Below are positions 4,738 through 25,990 of a DNA stretch of 32,000 nt, piece by piece (the first letter of the stretch is position 1; every line of letters begins with the position of its first letter). The position numbers and the translations under genes were made by a program. Below the pieces are notes generated by a model. The model did no database searches, was not told the DNA's origin, and saw only the letters and a list, made by a program, of their open reading frames with translations. The stretch comes from Nostoc punctiforme PCC 73102 (GTDB taxonomy: Bacteria; Cyanobacteriota; Cyanobacteriia; Cyanobacteriales; Nostocaceae), in contig NC_010628.1 in the NCBI RefSeq assembly GCF_000020025.1, positions 4,590,001-4,622,000 of the forward strand. The letters run 5' to 3'.

Positions 4738-5826
4738 ATGACTTCTGATTCTGCAATTCCCAATCTAAAGTCAAATTCTGCACTTCCTAATGCAGAATCA
4801 AACTCTATCCTTTCGGAGGTAGAGGTAAATCCTACTGTTTCTGATGTAGAGTCAGATCCTATCCCCCCTGATGCGGAGTTAAGATCCGTCCTCCTTTATT
4901 TAAAATCAAATACTATCGTTGGGGATGTAGAGTCTAATGCTGCTAACCCAGACTTAGAGTCTAATCCTGTTAACTCAGATTTAGAGCCAAATCCTGCTAA
5001 CCCAGATGTAGAGTCTAATACTGATGTCGCATCAGATTTTATCTTGACTGATTCAAATCCAAATGAGTCAGCAATATCAGGGTATCGCGTAAATGATAAT
5101 ACTCAAGTCCAGTTAAGAAGTAAGGAGGGACGACTGTTATTAATTTTGCCCCCGGAATCTCAAGTATCTGCCTCAGAACTCAGTTGGTCTGATATTTGGC
5201 AACAAATCAGGCAACGTTTGAATGCAGGCGATCGCTTCCGAATAGCAAATACACCCGTACATTTAATGGCACAAGACCGCCTAGTAGATGCCAGGCAACT
5301 CCAAGAACTCGCCGAGGCTTTAAGTGAAGTCCAACTGCGGCTAATATCTGTCTCAACGAGTCGTCGGCAAACTGCGATCGCAGCCGTAACATCTGGGTAT
5401 TCTGTAGAACAATTGCAGCTTGTAACTTCCCTGAATACAGGGTCAGAAGCTACAGCTACACCCCAGGCAGATGCCCTCTATCTAGAAACAACAGTCCGCT
5501 CTGGAGTAGAAATTCGTCATCCTGGTACAGTAATTATCTTGGGAGATGTAAACCCAGGTGGTATTGTAATTGCAGATGGAGATATTATCATCTGGGGTCG
5601 TTTACGTGGAATTGCTCATGCTGGGGCCGGAGGCAATCGTGAGTGTCTGATAATGGCTTTGCAAATGGAACCTACCCAATTGCGGATCGCAGATGCTGTA
5701 GCTAGGGCACCAGAAAAATTACCGACGCAATTTTCTCCAGAAGTGGCACATATTATGCCCCAAGGGATTCGCATCGCTAGGGCTAGTGATTTTTCTAGAA
5801 ACCAATTTACTAAGAGCAATCAGTAG
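4738..5826 (+). CDS. minC: Septum site-determining protein MinC with a repeat-containing N-terminal extension
   Basis: The C-terminal beta-helix domain (VRSGVEIRHPGTVIILGDVNPGGIVIADGDIIIWGRLRGIAHAGAGGN...LRIAD) is characteristic of MinC. It sits directly upstream of minD and minE. Confidence 0.85.
   Translation: MTSDSAIPNLKSNSALPNAESNSILSEVEVNPTVSDVESDPIPPDAELRSVLLYLKSNTIVGDVESNAANPDLESNPVNSDLEPNPANPDVESNTDVASDFILTDSNPNESAISGYRVNDNTQVQLRSKEGRLLLILPPESQVSASELSWSDIWQQIRQRLNAGDRFRIANTPVHLMAQDRLVDARQLQELAEALSEVQLRLISVSTSRRQTAIAAVTSGYSVEQLQLVTSLNTGSEATATPQADALYLETTVRSGVEIRHPGTVIILGDVNPGGIVIADGDIIIWGRLRGIAHAGAGGNRECLIMALQMEPTQLRIADAVARAPEKLPTQFSPEVAHIMPQGIRIARASDFSRNQFTKSNQ
4762..5031 (+). repeat. 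Ten tandem 27-nt (nonapeptide) repeats inside the minC 5' region
   Basis: Residues 9-98 parse without gaps into 9-aa units: NLKSNSALP, NAESNSILS, EVEVNPTVS, DVESDPIPP, DAELRSVLL, YLKSNTIVG, DVESNAANP, DLESNPVNS, DLEPNPANP, DVESNTDVA. The last four units are clearly similar at the DNA level. Confidence 0.75.
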
Positions 5827-6111: not shown

Positions 6112-6918
6112 ATGACTCGCATTATAGTGATTACCTCCGGTAAAGGAGGAGTGGGTAAAACCACAGTTTCAGCAAATCTGGGCATGGCTTTAGCCAAAAT
6201 GGGTCGTCAAGTTGCCTTGGTTGATGCGGATTTTGGTCTGAGAAATTTGGATTTGCTGCTAGGGCTGGAGAACCGCATTGTCTATACTGCGGTGGAAGTC
6301 TTGGCCAGAGAGTGTCGCTTAGAACAAGCCTTGGTGAAAGATAAACGCCAACCCAATCTTGTACTCCTACCGGCAGCCCAAAATCGTTCCAAAGATGCAG
6401 TCACACCGGAACAGATGAAGTTACTGGTCAATGCTCTAGCGCAAAAGTATCAGTACGTGATCATTGATAGCCCCGCCGGTATTGAAAATGGGTTTAAAAA
6501 TGCGATCGGCCCGGCCAAAGAAGCACTAGTTGTCAGCACGCCAGAAATTTCCTCAGTTCGTGATGCCGACCGGGTAGTGGGGTTACTTGAAGCACAAGGT
6601 ATCAAGCGTGTTCATTTAATAATTAACCGCATCAGACCCGCAATGGTGCAGGCAAATGATATGATGTCAGTGCAAGATGTTCAGGAACTTCTCGCCATTC
6701 CCCTGATCGGGGTAATCCCTGACGACGAGCGTGTTATTGTATCTACCAATCGCGGCGAACCCTTAGTGTTAGCGGAAAATCCTTCTTTAGCCGCCACAGC
6801 CTTTGAGAACATTGCTCGTAGATTAGAAGGAGAAAGTGTCGAATTTCTGGAGATCGACTCATCCCAAGACAGCATCTTCGCCCGTCTACGAAGGTTGTTG
6901 TGGACAAAGATTGTTTAA
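6112..6918 (+). CDS. minD: Septum site-determining ATPase MinD
   Basis: Deviant Walker A motif SGKGGVGKTT, DADFGLRNLDLLLGLE, and 268 aa located between minC and minE. Confidence 0.95.
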   Translation: MTRIIVITSGKGGVGKTTVSANLGMALAKMGRQVALVDADFGLRNLDLLLGLENRIVYTAVEVLARECRLEQALVKDKRQPNLVLLPAAQNRSKDAVTPEQMKLLVNALAQKYQYVIIDSPAGIENGFKNAIGPAKEALVVSTPEISSVRDADRVVGLLEAQGIKRVHLIINRIRPAMVQANDMMSVQDVQELLAIPLIGVIPDDERVIVSTNRGEPLVLAENPSLAATAFENIARRLEGESVEFLEIDSSQDSIFARLRRLLWTKIV

Positions 6919-12916: not shown

Positions 12917-13819
12917 ATGACTCAATTAGCAAATACAAAATTCAGTTTAAATGACTTTGAATTACGAGATGGTATTTATTTTCCTAGTGACTATGAACAA
13001 TTGAATAATACTCAACATAAAAAAACATGGGATGCAATTGGTAAAACATATTATGGTTCCCAAAAAATTGAAAAACTTGCAGATACGTCTCCCATCAAAC
13101 AAGATTACACTTTACTAACTGGTACACCTGGAGGTACTTGGAACAAATTTCCATTGAATAAATCTGTTGGCTCTATTCTAGAGATTGGTTCTGGTTATGG
13201 TCGCGCACCTTTGCATCTCTCGAAAGCGAAAAATCTGAGATGTGAAAAATATTATGGAATTGATATTTCTGAACCTTTGTTGCGGCGGTTAATTAAGGTT
13301 AAACAAGAATATAATTTTTTCCCAGAAGCTGAATTTAACTTGATTTGCACTTCTGCTGAAATATTGCCTTTAGAAGATAATTCTATAGATTTGGTAATTT
13401 CTAACTGTGTCTTTATGCACATCCCAGATGCACAATTAAGAAGTTTATTGGCTGATATATCTCGTGTGTTAAAGCCTGGTGGTATTTTTGTTTTTAATCA
13501 TTCCTTCCATAACAAGTCTTGTCCTTCTCATATTATCCATAATTTTGTGAGAAAGCTGAACCCATTTGTGAGAAATCCAGTTTATCTCAAGCAATATTCA
13601 TCTGCTGAAATTAATGAGATGTTAGCGAGTGCTGGCATCCAAACGAAGTGTCCACAATACATTGTGGAACCAACAGAAGAGTATGCAATTTTGCCGGAAA
13701 CCATTAAAGGGATTCCGGTACCTTTTGCTAAAGCTATCAACAGAAGTCTCAAGCCATCAGATGCTCTAAAAGAAACTTTGGCTTATGGTTTTAGTGCCTA
13801 CAGTAGTCAACTGGACTAA
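12917..13819 (+). CDS. Class I SAM-dependent methyltransferase
   Basis: Motif I ILEIGSGYGR, YYGIDIS, and LKPGGIFVF. The gene is markedly AT-rich; a 75-nt sample gave ~28% G+C. Confidence 0.7.
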   Translation: MTQLANTKFSLNDFELRDGIYFPSDYEQLNNTQHKKTWDAIGKTYYGSQKIEKLADTSPIKQDYTLLTGTPGGTWNKFPLNKSVGSILEIGSGYGRAPLHLSKAKNLRCEKYYGIDISEPLLRRLIKVKQEYNFFPEAEFNLICTSAEILPLEDNSIDLVISNCVFMHIPDAQLRSLLADISRVLKPGGIFVFNHSFHNKSCPSHIIHNFVRKLNPFVRNPVYLKQYSSAEINEMLASAGIQTKCPQYIVEPTEEYAILPETIKGIPVPFAKAINRSLKPSDALKETLAYGFSAYSSQLD

Positions 13820-13961: not shown

Positions 13962-14729
13962 TTACTGGTATCTAGGAACATCTGTACTTTTAAATATGGT
14001 TAGAAAAGTAATACACTTAAATTGACCAATAGATGGAAGGCTACATATTTTTGCTCCACAAGCAAAATATGCTTGTAAAATATGCGGAATTTCAACATTA
14101 TTATATGATCTAGGACATTGTTGAGGTAATTCTATAATAAATTCTGAGTTTGGATAAACCAAAATATTTGGATGCATCAAGTTATTTTGCTGAAAATAAT
14201 TATAAGCACAACGAGCTTGTAGAGGACTTTGTGTTTTAAATGTTACACGTCCCAAAAAATATTGGTTTCCACTCCAGACAAGATAATTCGCTAGACCCTT
14301 CCAGAGTAATAAAAGTGCCTGAATATTACGGTATTCTTTTGCTATACATGCACGCCCAAGTTCTACAGTTTCCTGAAGTATAGAATCAGGAATGTCATTA
14401 ATATTAAAATATTTAGCAGCACTAAATCCCAAAGCTTGAGAAGCCATTGTATAAGATTGCATTCGGTAATTCCCAACTATTTTACCAGTTGGCTTAAAGA
14501 TGAGTATCAAATGATGACAAACCGTATCGAATTCATCTTGATCTATCTGGGTAAAGTTAGAATCAGAATATTTCAAGCCTAGTTCGATATTAAAAATTTC
14601 AAAGCGCAACCGAAAAACAGATTCTAATTCTTCTTTAGTAGACGCAAGCCGGAGAATATACTTTTCGGTTTCAATTACTGGGAAATATTTGAGGAGACAG
14701 TCAGATATTAGTGGATATTTAGTGTTCAT
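13962..14729 (-). CDS. GNAT-fold N-acyltransferase, OlsB / N-acyl amino acid synthase-like (Acetyltransf_5-type)
   Basis: 255 aa. VFRLRFEIFNIELGLKY...DEFDTVCHHLILIFKPTGKIVGNYRMQ and the later ELGRACIAKEYRN resemble the lyso-ornithine-lipid / N-acyl amino acid synthase branch of GNATs. A sample of the gene gave ~31% G+C. Confidence 0.6.
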   Translation of the reverse strand: MNTKYPLISDCLLKYFPVIETEKYILRLASTKEELESVFRLRFEIFNIELGLKYSDSNFTQIDQDEFDTVCHHLILIFKPTGKIVGNYRMQSYTMASQALGFSAAKYFNINDIPDSILQETVELGRACIAKEYRNIQALLLLWKGLANYLVWSGNQYFLGRVTFKTQSPLQARCAYNYFQQNNLMHPNILVYPNSEFIIELPQQCPRSYNNVEIPHILQAYFACGAKICSLPSIGQFKCITFLTIFKSTDVPRYQ

Positions 14730-17239: not shown

Positions 17240-17614
17240 TTAAGCAGGCATCATCTGCATACTTCTGCAAGACTCTGCACACTTACGGCAAGCAGCAGCA
17301 CATTCCATCATTTTCATGTCATCGCTCATCATCTCACACGCCATTGCAGTGCGATCGCACATTTCAGCACAGAGCATACAAGTGCGTTCCATGAACTCAG
17401 AACCACTCATCATCATATTCATGCACATCATGCACATTTCAGAGCAATCGCGCATCATGCTCATCATGCTCATCATGTCCTTGTTCATCTGCATACCACC
17501 TTTGGCCATGCAGTAAGTCATGGTTTCCATGCACATTTTATGACAGTCCATACAAACTTCCATACAAGCTTGCATTTCGGCAGTCATGGTTTCATTCATC
17601 ATCATCATCATCAT
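17240..17614 (-). CDS. Met/Cys-rich four-helix-bundle metal-binding protein, DUF326 / Csp3 (YhjQ)-like
   Basis: 124 aa with 41 Met and 16 Cys (hand count). Cys spacing is C-x3-C-x2-C-x3-C-x6-C (CMEVCMDCHKMCMETMTYC), and the C-terminus CRKCAESCRSM parallels B. subtilis YhjQ (...CAEQCRSM). There is an AAGAGG Shine-Dalgarno sequence upstream and no signal peptide. The ORF begins with six consecutive ATG codons. Confidence 0.75.
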   Translation of the reverse strand: MMMMMMNETMTAEMQACMEVCMDCHKMCMETMTYCMAKGGMQMNKDMMSMMSMMRDCSEMCMMCMNMMMSGSEFMERTCMLCAEMCDRTAMACEMMSDDMKMMECAAACRKCAESCRSMQMMPA

Positions 17615-23096: not shown

Positions 23097-24053
23097 TTGT
23101 CTGTTCATTTCACTCCTATTAATAACGTTAAAGTCTTAGTCAACGCAATGAAAACAATCACCTCACTTTTTAGCGAAGAACGCAACCAACTCCAGACAGA
23201 TATTGATAACACAACCAACATCGAGGAGATAGTTAAGTTGGTTCAGAATCGACTTGATAATCTCGAAAGAATTTACATTGAAAAGCTTAATTTAGCTCAA
23301 GTTCGTCTAGCTTCATTTTTCCTAGATACCCTGCGGCAGTCCATCGCCACTCTCGCTGCGGCTAACTATTCTCAAATTGCTCCAACAGAACAAAAGCAAT
23401 TTACTAACCCAAGTACAAACCTTTTTTCCACCAGATTAATCCTGAAACTGCTAAAAGGACTAATTTATATCGGCATCTTAGGTTCGTTATTCTCTTTAAC
23501 TAAAACTACCCCAGGTGCGTGGATGGCTATCTTACTAACCTCTATACTTCTAGGGGTAGAAGTTGTGCTTCAACTCGACTTAAATAATCAGCGAAATTCT
23601 ATATCTTCAGAGCTATTGGAATTACCTAAACCTCTGCTCCGGGTTGATAGTAAGGTATTTTTAGATCATCTTGGTGATGCTCTCAACACTATCGACCTAG
23701 CAGTAGCTAGAGTAGAAGAATGGAATAAACATGAAGGCGATCTAGCAATAGAAGAACTGCCAGAGTTATTAAATTTTCTGCAAAGGCTAATGGGCGCATC
23801 TAAACTTGATAAACCCCAAATGGCTTATGAACTTGCAAAACTTCTGCCACAGATTTTAATGTCTCAGGGAATTAACACTCAAATTTACCGACCAAATGAC
23901 CCTCACAGCGATCGCAATTATTTTGACTTTGAGCCAAGTATCGACCCTGATACCAAAGATCACGTAACTCTAACTCCGGCTTTGTTGAAAGGCGATCGCT
24001 TGATTCGGCGCGGTAGAGTAATTGAGCCAGCATATTCCGCTTCTAGAGAATAA
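23097..24053 (+). CDS. Membrane-inserted coiled-coil protein with a GrpE-like C-terminal half
   Basis: The track start is a TTG; the ATG at 23148 (MKTITSLFSEERNQ) is more likely. There is a hydrophobic hairpin at aa 113-160 (nt 23433-23576). FLDHLGDALNTIDLA and the C-terminus QGINTQIYRPNDPH...YFDFEP...VTLTPALLKGDRLIRRGRVIEPA parallel GrpE motifs. The stop is 14 nt before the Hsp70-like gene. Confidence 0.5.
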   Translation: MSVHFTPINNVKVLVNAMKTITSLFSEERNQLQTDIDNTTNIEEIVKLVQNRLDNLERIYIEKLNLAQVRLASFFLDTLRQSIATLAAANYSQIAPTEQKQFTNPSTNLFSTRLILKLLKGLIYIGILGSLFSLTKTTPGAWMAILLTSILLGVEVVLQLDLNNQRNSISSELLELPKPLLRVDSKVFLDHLGDALNTIDLAVARVEEWNKHEGDLAIEELPELLNFLQRLMGASKLDKPQMAYELAKLLPQILMSQGINTQIYRPNDPHSDRNYFDFEPSIDPDTKDHVTLTPALLKGDRLIRRGRVIEPAYSASRE

Positions 24054-24067
24054 TAGACAATAAGGGT

Positions 24068-25990
24068 ATGGAAATTTTAGAAACAATCGGTTTTGATTTG
24101 GGGCACGGTGAAACGGCTGTAGCTAAAGCGATCGTGGAAAGCATCGACCCCCCCCAGATGTTGGAGATTAACAACAAGAAGAACCAAATTACAGCCCTTG
24201 GTTGGCATCCTAAACTCGGTTATCTAGTCGGCGAACAAGCATTAATTCAAGCTGGCGTTACCCAACTGACAATTTCATTCAAGCAAAAACCCAACAACGA
24301 TCCCAAATATCGGGAAACAATTAGCACTTTTGTAGCAACCTACTACCGCCTTTTGAAAGAAAGTAAACAACTGGAAGGTGGGGAAAGTAGCTATTTTTAC
24401 ATTGGTTGCCCTTCAGGATGGTCAGTTAGCGATCGCACCGAATACCAAAAGCTACTTCAAGAAGCTGGCATTCCCCAACTAAATGTTGTACCCGAATCGC
24501 GGGCTGCTTTCATGCAAGCCAAGGAAGCCGGGAAACTGGAGTATGACAAACTTGTTGCATCGGTGCTAATTGTCGATATTGGTTCTTCAACCACAGATTT
24601 TACTCTGGTTAAGAGCTTAGAAGAGATCCCCATAGATTTCGGGAGTAATACTTTAGGTGCATCTCTAATTGACAAAGCTATTTTTGCCCGGACTCTTGCC
24701 AACCACGAGCAAAAAGCATTACTCGAAAAAGTATTTCAGGAATATCCCCATCACCAAGCTCGTTGTGAACTTGCTTGCCGTAAAGCTAAAGAAGATTACT
24801 TTTCTAATGAACAGCTATACAGCGATCCTGAATCCTTTGCGCGTGGCTTCGAGTCGATTAACGAACAGATTTATTTTATTCCTCAAGTCAATAAATTGCT
24901 GATGGAGGAAATTTTAAACCAGCCCTTACCAGAACTGGGACATCATAGTTGGGTGCGATCGTTTACCGACTCTTTAACCGAGGCAAAAGAAAAGCTAGAA
25001 AAACTTGGAATCGTGCCGAAACTTCTGCTGATGACTGGCGGTGCATCTCGCATGAAGTTTACGCACTTGCTTTGCCAGGAAATGTTTCCCGAACCAGAAA
25101 CGCTGCTTCGCCCCGATCCAGAACCGGAACGGTGTATCGCACTGGGATTAGCACGAGTAGGACGATGGGATCTGCGTGCTGCTGCTTTTAAGGAAGAAGT
25201 CAACAAACTATTTACCTCGAATACGCTTAAAGGTTTGATTGAAAAGCATATCCCGGAGTTAATCGAATCATTAACTAAGCCTTTGACAGATGGCTTGATT
25301 GTCAACGCAGTTAAACCAGCTTTAAAAGATTGGCAAAAAAACAAAATACGGACTTTAGCAGATTTGGAAACATCTTTAATTAGTCGGGCAGAACAGTGGC
25401 TCAAAAGCGAGATTGCTGTGCAGATAATTAATCATCAATGCGCTTCTTGGTTTAGCAATAAAATCCAACCCGATTTAGCCGCACAAACCGATCCAATCTG
25501 TCGAAAGTTTCAGATACCTAGAAGCAGCTTAAGGTTCCAGGATAGTATTGACCCAAATTTTGTTAATCCAGAGTTACGGATTGGAGATGCTATTCTGGCT
25601 GAGACAGTGGGCTTTATTGTCAATATAGTAATTGGTGGAGGTACTGTAGCTAGCATCATCACTCTCATACTAACTGGACATTTAACCTGGCCTATTGCAT
25701 TAGTATACGGGGCTTCGGTGATGGCGGCAGGAATGGAGCTAAATCGCAAGAGTGTTCAAGAAGTAATCAAGACAAATGTGGATGTACCTAGTTGGGTTCG
25801 TTCTAGTTTTTTGAGTGATAAAAAAATCGAGGATATGTGTGAGCAAATAAAGCCTGAGTTAGAGAAAGTTCTTCAAGAACAATTGACAGCAGATCGAGAA
25901 GCTTTTGATAAACTGATTAGTAAAGTTGAGCAAGGGCTTCAAAAAACCCTTTCCACCAAAGTTCAATCTTGCATAATTCTGATCCAATAA
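24068..25990 (+). CDS. Hsp70-family (actin-fold) ATPase lacking a substrate-binding domain, with a C-terminal transmembrane hairpin
   Basis: All Hsp70 NBD motifs occur in order: IGFDLGHGETAVA, NVVPESRAAFMQA, VLIVDIGSSTTDFTLV, RCELACRKAKEDYFS, LLLMTGGASRMKF, PERCIALGLARVG. After ~aa 366 the sequence is helical, followed by a hydrophobic hairpin at aa 514-556 (nt 25607-25735) and a charged tail. Confidence 0.8.
   Translation: MEILETIGFDLGHGETAVAKAIVESIDPPQMLEINNKKNQITALGWHPKLGYLVGEQALIQAGVTQLTISFKQKPNNDPKYRETISTFVATYYRLLKESKQLEGGESSYFYIGCPSGWSVSDRTEYQKLLQEAGIPQLNVVPESRAAFMQAKEAGKLEYDKLVASVLIVDIGSSTTDFTLVKSLEEIPIDFGSNTLGASLIDKAIFARTLANHEQKALLEKVFQEYPHHQARCELACRKAKEDYFSNEQLYSDPESFARGFESINEQIYFIPQVNKLLMEEILNQPLPELGHHSWVRSFTDSLTEAKEKLEKLGIVPKLLLMTGGASRMKFTHLLCQEMFPEPETLLRPDPEPERCIALGLARVGRWDLRAAAFKEEVNKLFTSNTLKGLIEKHIPELIESLTKPLTDGLIVNAVKPALKDWQKNKIRTLADLETSLISRAEQWLKSEIAVQIINHQCASWFSNKIQPDLAAQTDPICRKFQIPRSSLRFQDSIDPNFVNPELRIGDAILAETVGFIVNIVIGGGTVASIITLILTGHLTWPIALVYGASVMAAGMELNRKSVQEVIKTNVDVPSWVRSSFLSDKKIEDMCEQIKPELEKVLQEQLTADREAFDKLISKVEQGLQKTLSTKVQSCIILIQ

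Follow-up and report, generated by a model that had tools for sequence, protein, structure and literature searches.

Nearly all that is known of Hsp70-type ATPases concerns chaperones, which depend on a client-binding domain, a J-protein, and a nucleotide exchange factor. Here, a two-gene locus of Nostoc punctiforme PCC 73102 is described in which an ATPase of this type may instead drive a membrane machine of dynamin-like design. The locus lies in a 32,000-nucleotide stretch of contig NC_010628.1 (positions 4,590,001 to 4,622,000), referred to below as the window, and its upstream and downstream genes are called A and B. Among the closest described systems are the dynamin-like pairs, which include BDLP1/2 of N. 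punctiforme, LeoA-LeoBC (Eleos), and DynA, and whose known roles are in phage defence or in membrane integrity and remodelling (Millman et al. 2022 preprint). In the Leo operon, the dynamin-like component is LeoBC (Michie et al.), and a homologous two-gene dynamin system protects Bacillus subtilis from jumbo phages (Millman et al. 2022 preprint). In cyanobacteria, dynamin-like genes of a "chaperone clade" are followed downstream by a gene with a DnaK domain (Jilly et al. 2018, PMC5827413). HSP70 components have also been described in nucleoside triphosphate (NTP)-dependent conflict systems, where they are canonical DnaK-like proteins, either ~50% identical to DnaK or accompanied by GrpE and DnaJ (PMC7159879, PMC12642450).

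Like DnaK-GrpE, the locus combines an Hsp70-type nucleotide-binding domain (NBD) with the same catalytic residues, predicted for residues 1-367 of protein B, with a tight pairing of the ATPase gene and a smaller gene for a partly helical partner. Unlike DnaK, B has no interdomain linker, no β-sandwich client-binding domain, and no lid; the window contains no J-protein, A has no detectable homology to GrpE, and both A and B carry predicted membrane hairpins. Judged by sequence and structural model, B does not belong among the Hsp70 chaperones, though it appears to run on the same engine. The likeness to dynamin-like pairs lies in the two adjacent genes and in the order of parts predicted for B, namely an NTPase head, a helical stalk, a hydrophobic Gly-rich tip, and return helices, with a tail that resembles the LeoBC profile. 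The differences are that the head of B is an Hsp70-type ATPase and not a GTPase, that A lacks an NTPase domain and is itself no dynamin-like protein, and that the B tail has no sequence match to solved dynamin-like proteins.

The "chaperone clade" provides a parallel in the genomic link of Hsp70-like proteins with dynamin-type membrane machinery in cyanobacteria, but a full dynamin-like GTPase is encoded upstream there, whereas here the upstream product is the 301-residue protein A; the DnaK-domain proteins of that clade may or may not belong to the B family. The likeness to conflict systems (Kaur et al. 2020, PMC7159879; Evans et al. 2025, PMC12642450) runs through relatives of B, which carry TIR, caspase/CHAT, kinase, and EAD9-like parts and occur beside MoxR-vWA, CHAT, SIR2-STALD, and Trypco1/Pepco genes, recalling the MoxR-vWA ternary systems, the EAD adaptors, and the caspase-Pepco/EACC1 systems. 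The A-B pair of the window, in contrast, has neither an effector domain nor such neighbours. EACC1-DnaK fusions and the HSP70 components of DO-GTPase systems were considered as members of the B family and rejected, as they are canonical DnaK-like proteins. ParM and MreB share the ASKHA fold with B, and some B-family entries are automatically named "ParM", but the similarity of B to these proteins is far weaker than to Hsp70 NBDs by both profile and fold, and a ParM/MreB identity of B was rejected.

Layout of the Gene Pair

The two open reading frames (ORFs) are co-oriented on the plus strand at 23097-24053 and 24068-25990 and are separated by 14 nt, in agreement with an initial annotation of this DNA that had been made by reading the sequence without database searches. 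The longest ORF of A opens at TTG 23097, and the conserved start is ATG 23148. The latter is almost certainly the true start, because the N-terminal sequence MKT..LFS.ER is kept in 78 of 78 syntenic loci and the database entry has 301 residues. The initial annotation had left the length at 301-318 residues; the shorter value holds and the extension from the TTG does not, and residues of A are numbered from ATG 23148 throughout. Gene A (23148-24053, plus strand) matches the 301-residue N. punctiforme entry WP_041565505.1 exactly, database entries for A span 298-302 residues, and the product is predicted to be a membrane-anchored partner of B. Gene B (24068-25990, plus strand) encodes a 640-residue protein that is identical to ACC82054.1 / WP_012410025.1 / UniProt B2J2Y7 and is predicted to be an Hsp70-type ATPase whose helical tail binds the membrane. 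All parts of A and B described below are on the same plus strand.

The spacer of 14 nt (24054-24067, plus strand) between the TAA stop codon of A (24051-24053) and the ATG of B is purine-rich (TAGACAATAAGGGT), and its length across 78 genome loci has a median of 14 nt and a range of -13 to 387. Scans for promoters and terminators gave no signal above chance. Because the pair is kept in more than 150 loci, A and B are considered real genes and not chance ORFs. The HPD tripeptide of J-domains was absent from every ORF of at least 60 residues in the window, which agrees with the earlier statement that no J-domain protein lies nearby, although a J-protein elsewhere in the genome is possible. Elsewhere in the window, no gene shows a relationship to A, B, or DnaK. 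No effector domain was found in A or B, and none of the genes beside them in the window encodes an effector. The literature, searched by topic and with the accessions of the proteins, yielded nothing on the A or B family and no characterised example, as the initial annotation had supposed.

Hsp70-type Head of Protein B

A profile of the B family was built from 38 diverse members with 30-73% identity. Its top 60 matches in the Protein Data Bank (PDB) were all Hsp70 NBDs, among them BiP (E 4e-13), Hsc70, and DnaK. An hhalign comparison of B with Escherichia coli DnaK gave a probability of 98% and an E-value of 3e-13, with residues 4-367 of B aligned to residues 2-381 of DnaK, so that the alignment ends at the junction between the NBD and the linker. 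In this alignment, the catalytic residues of B and DnaK correspond one to one, as D10/D8, K72/K70, E143/E171, and D170-T175-D177/D194-T199-D201. The GG adenosine motif is also present in B, and the catalytic residues are invariant or nearly so across the family. The AlphaFold2 model of B has a mean predicted local distance difference test score (pLDDT) of 85 and a predicted template modelling score of 0.79, with a pLDDT of ~90 in the head. A Foldseek search with this model retrieved the NBDs of DnaK, Hsc70, and BiP with E-values of ~1e-15 and template modelling (TM) scores, normalised to the target, of 0.62-0.70, and the top 50 structural matches were all Hsp70. The complete set of Hsp70 NBD motifs that had been noticed by eye in the 640-residue protein is thus borne out by PDB profile, hhalign, and Foldseek, and by sequence and model the head of B (residues 1-367; 24068-25168) is a genuine Hsp70-type NBD with all catalytic residues intact.

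Searches with the single sequence gave a fainter picture. The window B alone stayed below every Pfam and NCBIfam threshold and did not match PF00012 even at E≤1; the PF00012 threshold was passed by several of its relatives (P0264, P0307, and P0346). Faint matches of the single sequence were to ParM, MreB-like, BeeR, and YegD families, of which ParM_N (E 0.006) and MreB-like_C (E 0.039) both fell short of the cut-off, and relatives of B gave sub-threshold MreB_Mbl matches. A phmmer search of the PDB with B ranked Hsc70 at E 0.0019, MreB at 0.12, and ParM at 0.49. Because such single-sequence matches are faint, the automated names "Hsp70 family protein" and "ParM" given to B rest on little.

Helical Tail of Protein B

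Beyond the head, the model of B is wholly helical from residue 353 to residue 640 and contains no linker, no β-sandwich substrate-binding domain, and no lid. The absence of a DnaK-type linker and client-binding domain, as initially annotated, is therefore upheld both by the DnaK alignment, which stops at the end of the NBD, and by the all-helical tail. Residues 368-490 (25169-25537) are modelled as an outbound helical stalk with helices at 353-383, 386-423, 430-445, and 448-480 and a pLDDT of 82-95, and W422 of the stalk is invariant in the family alignment. The Kyte-Doolittle profile marks residues 507-556 (25586-25735) as a Gly-rich hydrophobic hairpin, a putative membrane paddle or hairpin; the model gives it low confidence (at 507-553), as would be expected of a segment that does not pack against the rest of the protein. 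A hydrophobic span occurs at this position in 38 of 38 relatives, with a median length of 52 residues, 0-5 charges, and 8-29% Gly. Residues 557-640 (25736-25987) form predicted return helices (556-638, pLDDT 72-87) and end in a conserved C-terminus with the consensus AD.A.LLI[RK]. In the model, the stalk, the hairpin at its far end, and the return helices fit the topology of the stalk, paddle, and GTPase effector domain of dynamin-like proteins.

A profile of the tail only had no match in the PDB or Pfam, neither to an Hsp70 chain nor to a solved dynamin-like protein. Among PADLOC models, that of LeoBC matched 12 of the 38 B relatives with a best E-value of 9e-11, and the match joins residues ~450-638 of B to positions 399-558 of the 601 in the model. 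Other PADLOC matches among these relatives were to PDC-M61B in seven and to two PDC-M09A models in up to six (four and two). By this family comparison, the tail of B resembles the membrane-binding end of LeoBC, a feature that the initial annotation had missed, and on present evidence it would act like a dynamin-like tail.

Architecture of Protein A

The A family comprises ~700 database clusters, all of them cyanobacterial and all named "hypothetical", and A has no family match in Pfam, NCBIfam, PADLOC, or the PDB. Its AlphaFold2 model, computed with 124 sequences, is poor (pLDDT 55.6), and the best Foldseek match had an E-value of 0.67. The sole confident part of the model is the N-terminal helical, heptad-like region of residues 1-77 (23148-23378), with helices at 4-21, 25-44, and 49-77 and a pLDDT of ~64-84. 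A hydrophobic helical hairpin (RLILKLLKGLIYIGILGSLFSL-TKTTPGA-WMAILLTSILLGVEVVLQL) follows at residues 96-145 (23433-23582), where the Kyte-Doolittle windows exceed 1.5, and a hydrophobic span of ~49 residues with a P-G-x-W turn is kept in the cyanobacterial, Binatia, and other A partners. The hydrophobic hairpins earlier noticed in both proteins are thereby recovered as conserved spans, at residues 96-145 of A and at residues 507-556 of B. The middle part of A beyond the hairpin is helical. Residues 240-295 (23865-24032; GI..QIY...YFDFEPSID...VT.TPALLKGDRLLRRGRVIEPA) form the most conserved domain, with most of the invariant columns, and are preserved in the partners from Binatia and Methanothrix; the AlphaFold2 confidence there is below 50. 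This domain, which the initial annotation had likened to the GrpE β-domain, is presumed to be the B-binding or output domain.

The turns of the two hairpins are alike, with T-P-G-A-W at residues 119-125 of A (23502-23522) and a consensus of G-P-x-G-W at residues 536-541 of B (25673-25690), where the window protein itself reads G-H-L-T-W-P. The likeness is not significant (hhalign 1.6%), and A as a paralog of the B tail was rejected, the similar P-G-x-W turn being all that the two have in common. A relation of A to Pepco (PF24393), for which weak sub-threshold matches appeared in 3 of 30 homologs, was treated as noise.

Comparison of Protein A with GrpE

The initial annotation had taken A for a GrpE-like nucleotide exchange factor on account of short strings in its sequence. 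The strings are present, but they are no more similar to GrpE than expected by chance. No match to PF01025 was found in A or in 30 diverse A homologs, and the A-family profile retrieved nothing at E≤10 from the PDB, in which GrpE structures are included. With hhalign, the probability was 0.3% against E. coli GrpE and at most 1% against a ten-species GrpE alignment, even after the A profile had been broadened with the partners from Binatia, Methanothrix, and metagenomes; a GrpE-versus-GrpE control reached 99.9%. When the C-terminal 80 residues of A were compared with the C-terminus of GrpE, the best local alignment spanned 11 columns (GDRLLRRGRVI / NxRVLRPAMV) and scored 16.2, compared with 10.6±2.3 for column shuffles, and 4 of 200 shuffles reached this score. 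A permissive hhalign path between A and GrpE runs through the same three colinear motifs as the initial annotation, and by these comparisons the resemblance is real as a pattern with no statistical weight. A Foldseek search with A, which used the poor model described above, returned no GrpE. Homology of A to GrpE is consequently unsupported, the results from Pfam, the PDB profile, hhalign, and the C-terminal shuffles all being negative.

Conservation of the Pair

The genome sample comprised 80 loci from Nostocales, Oscillatoriales, Coleofasciculaceae, Chroococcidiopsidaceae, and others, with B proteins that are 65-99% identical. An A homolog was found directly upstream of B and on the same strand in 78 of them. 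One of the two exceptions is cut by a contig end, and the other has a minus-strand ORF in the upstream region. In the latter locus (L041:735-2147, identical to L133, from Pelatocladus), an ORF of 471 residues on the minus strand stands in place of A and is possibly an insertion; among the loci whose upstream sequence is complete, it is the only one in which A is missing and B has no N-terminal extension either. In a broad metagenome sample, A was located upstream of B in 73 of 80 loci, and the seven exceptions consist of two loci without upstream sequence, one disrupted locus, three in which B has an N-terminal extension, and one caspase-CHAT fusion. The synteny in both samples agrees with the proposal that the genes form a dedicated pair. 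Flanking genes other than A and B are conserved only among close Nostoc.

At a level of 50% identity, the B family comprises at least 1259 clusters, which are mostly full length and of which 357 have E<1e-30. It reaches far past the cyanobacteria, with members in Candidatus Binatia, Saprospiraceae, Xenococcaceae, and the archaeon Methanothrix. Distant B homologs with 29-38% identity still have an upstream gene of the A family, as judged by hhalign probabilities of 95% and 85% for two metagenome loci, 98.6% for Binatia, and 99.8% for Methanothrix. A phage origin found no support, since a search of 2.9 million viral contigs gave just 2 loci, both distant.

Two of the distant loci have further features. 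In Candidatus Binatia (L099:5858-9914), A-B is followed on the other strand by a set of genes like a diversity-generating retroelement, namely an RVT_1 reverse transcriptase, bAvd, and FGE-sulfatase. In Methanothrix (L101:4001-10129), the B homolog contains tandem NBDs, the first of which is degenerate (SAITN for SSTTD and GEASRM for GGASRM), and a gene for a 937-residue DUF87/HerA-like ATPase begins 15 nt downstream. The sequence of the tandem form hints that the heads may act in pairs.

Effector-fused Relatives of Protein B

N-terminal extensions were present in 19 of the 150 best B representatives. In the class of B homologs with ~800 residues, nine of the ten tested were TIR fusions, and one TIR-B fusion adjoins genes for SIR2-STALD and a ThsB-like TIR protein. 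A caspase/CHAT-B fusion has a Trypco1/Pepco gene and a gene for a TrwC relaxase as neighbours. In a Xenococcaceae cyanobacterium (L104:1-9898), a Ser/Thr-kinase-B fusion directly follows genes for a MoxR-type AAA_5 protein and a vWA protein and is itself followed by two CHAT-domain genes, one with FHA and TPR domains; by analogy, this layout is that of a MoxR-vWA "ternary" conflict system. Three metagenome homologs have a helical N-terminal extension of ~85 residues, which in one of them (L111) weakly matches EAD9. The gene upstream of such an EAD9-like-extended homolog (L110:2523-3356) encodes TIR_2 plus EAD9, and the gene downstream of the extended B in L111 (5995-6510) opens with a similar helical motif and has no Pfam match. 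These sequences give the B family a clear link to conflict systems, which the initial annotation had not recognised.

No A partner was found in any fused B context examined, and the fused homologs retain the NBD motifs. Because the motifs are kept where A is missing, A is unlikely to be needed for the nucleotide cycle. Together with the missing PF01025 match and the hhalign probabilities of 0.3-1%, this argues against the exchange factor that the initial annotation had proposed. On the sequence evidence, A is probably not GrpE-like but an alternative output or partner module.

Other Features of the Window

A few further observations were made in the window. An ORF of 124 residues at 17240-17614 on the minus strand is extremely rich in Met and Cys (MMMMMMNETMTAEMQACMEVCMDCHKMCMETMTYCMAKGG...) and looks like a Cys-rich helical metal-binding protein. 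The N-terminal part of a 362-residue ORF at 4738-5826 on the plus strand consists of many short repeats of the type SN(P/A)..SD(L/V)E. Between 13001 and 15000, the GC content is 0.29-0.35, compared with 0.39-0.46 on both sides, and this region, which overlaps the ORFs 12917-13819 (plus strand) and 13962-14729 (minus strand), may be foreign DNA. An ORF at 6112-6918 on the plus strand opens with MTRIIVITSGKGGVGKTT, as in ATPases of the MinD/ParA type with a deviant Walker A motif, and has no evident link to the A-B pair.

Discussion

At a probability of roughly 45%, A and B form a dedicated ATP-driven membrane switch or machine that is organised like a dynamin pair, carries an Hsp70-type head, and has A as its partner or output. 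Both proteins would be held in the membrane by their hairpins, with all soluble parts on the cytoplasmic face. Binding and hydrolysis of ATP in the head of B would, at the membrane, alter the conformation of the stalk and probably also how B associates with itself. A would bind B through its conserved C-terminal domain and would serve the switch as a partner or an output, not as an exchange factor. The job common to the whole scaffold would most likely be to detect or answer a disturbance associated with the membrane, such as envelope stress or phage damage, and to pass it on to an output, because sister branches of B swap A for TIR, caspase/CHAT, kinase, or EAD modules in defence neighbourhoods. 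In the A-B form, the output would fall on the membrane itself, which would be sealed, remodelled, or permeabilised. The physiological role could then be to repair or remodel membranes, as DynA and BDLP do, or a regulated permeabilisation in the manner of abortive infection, and the contexts of the sister branches favour a role in immunity.

Several observations weigh against this proposal. The window B itself reached only E 0.016 for PDC-M09A and had no LeoBC match, so the link to LeoBC is one by family transitivity. Scores of hidden Markov models can be inflated by hydrophobic segments, and the sequence search with the B tail profile, as described above, found no solved dynamin-like protein. 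A dynamin-type GTPase, recognisable by its extended P-loop, was absent from every ORF of the 177 B loci. Finally, the Nostoc pair lies among ordinary genes, and its flanks are kept within the genus; such a neighbourhood, together with vertical inheritance in Nostoc, is more in keeping with a role in housekeeping or stress than with a mobile defence island. A bolder form of the proposal can be put forward tentatively. The A-B pair would in this case be the founding example of a new class of ATP-driven membrane machines, the Hsp70-headed dynamin analogues, whose stalk-and-paddle membrane module would be powered by an Hsp70-type ATPase in place of a GTPase and which would be conserved from archaea to cyanobacteria, the scaffold having been plugged repeatedly into TIR, caspase, or kinase effectors and A being its native output.

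An unlikely explanation is that the pair is an abortive-infection or toxin switch, in which B senses infection and frees either A or the hairpin of B, so that the membrane is permeabilised and the cell dies. The mutual exclusion of A with TIR, caspase, and EAD modules among the relatives is what would be expected of an effector, the tail resembles the PADLOC models LeoBC, PDC-M61B, and PDC-M09A, the Binatia locus abuts the retroelement-like cassette, and membrane pore effectors activated by proteases are common in such systems (PMC12642450). The A family, however, has no PADLOC match, the Nostoc pair is flanked by ordinary genes and inherited with them, its identity of 65-99% across cyanobacterial orders is unlike that of patchy defence genes, and the pair is nearly absent from viral contigs. 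Decidedly less probable is the explanation of the initial annotation, that A is a membrane-tethered GrpE-like exchange factor that resets the Hsp70-type head of B. It would account for a pair that is tight and ancient and for the GrpE-like gross features of A, which in a poor AlphaFold2 model begins with helices, stays helical in its middle, and ends in a small part that contains strands; the colinear path through three motifs and the short RLLRRGRVI / RVLRPAMV match, slightly above shuffles, point the same way. These are outweighed by the negative Pfam and PDB searches, by hhalign values of 0.3-1% where the control gives 99.9%, by a Foldseek search of the poor A model without GrpE, and by the effector-fused B homologs, which lack A and have equally conserved NBD motifs.

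Two other readings of B are improbable. A specialised chaperone for membrane proteins, whose helical tail or hairpin binds clients such as thylakoid or septal proteins where a chaperone would use a β-sandwich domain, would be in keeping with the intact Hsp70-type ATPase, the predicted membrane location, and the wide distribution in thylakoid-bearing filamentous cyanobacteria. The lack of a linker, client-binding domain, and lid, and of a J-protein in the window, speaks against it, the same pair is also found where thylakoids are absent, in Binatia and Methanothrix, and the TIR and caspase fusions are hard to reconcile with a role in folding. The least probable is a membrane-anchored actin-like filament of the ParM/MreB type, in which B polymerises and A serves as anchor or adaptor. 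The ASKHA fold of B, its faint matches to ParM_N, MreB-like_C, and BeeR, the entries named ParM, and the sub-threshold MreB_Mbl matches in relatives are compatible with such a filament, but the Hsp70 NBD profile match of 4e-13 stands against 0.12-0.49 for MreB and ParM, the top 50 structural matches are all Hsp70, and the Lys and Glu specific to Hsp70 catalysis are kept.

The A-B pair is a real, widespread, and uncharacterised two-gene module, and it is present in the genetically tractable N. punctiforme PCC 73102. In the large family to which B belongs, the Hsp70 engine appears to have been kept and the chaperone parts dropped, with a dynamin-like tail and a dedicated membrane partner added. 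If the proposed dynamin-like switch is correct, the pair would represent a second, independent route to a nucleotide-driven membrane machine and a new scaffold for prokaryotic immunity, and both ideas are directly testable.

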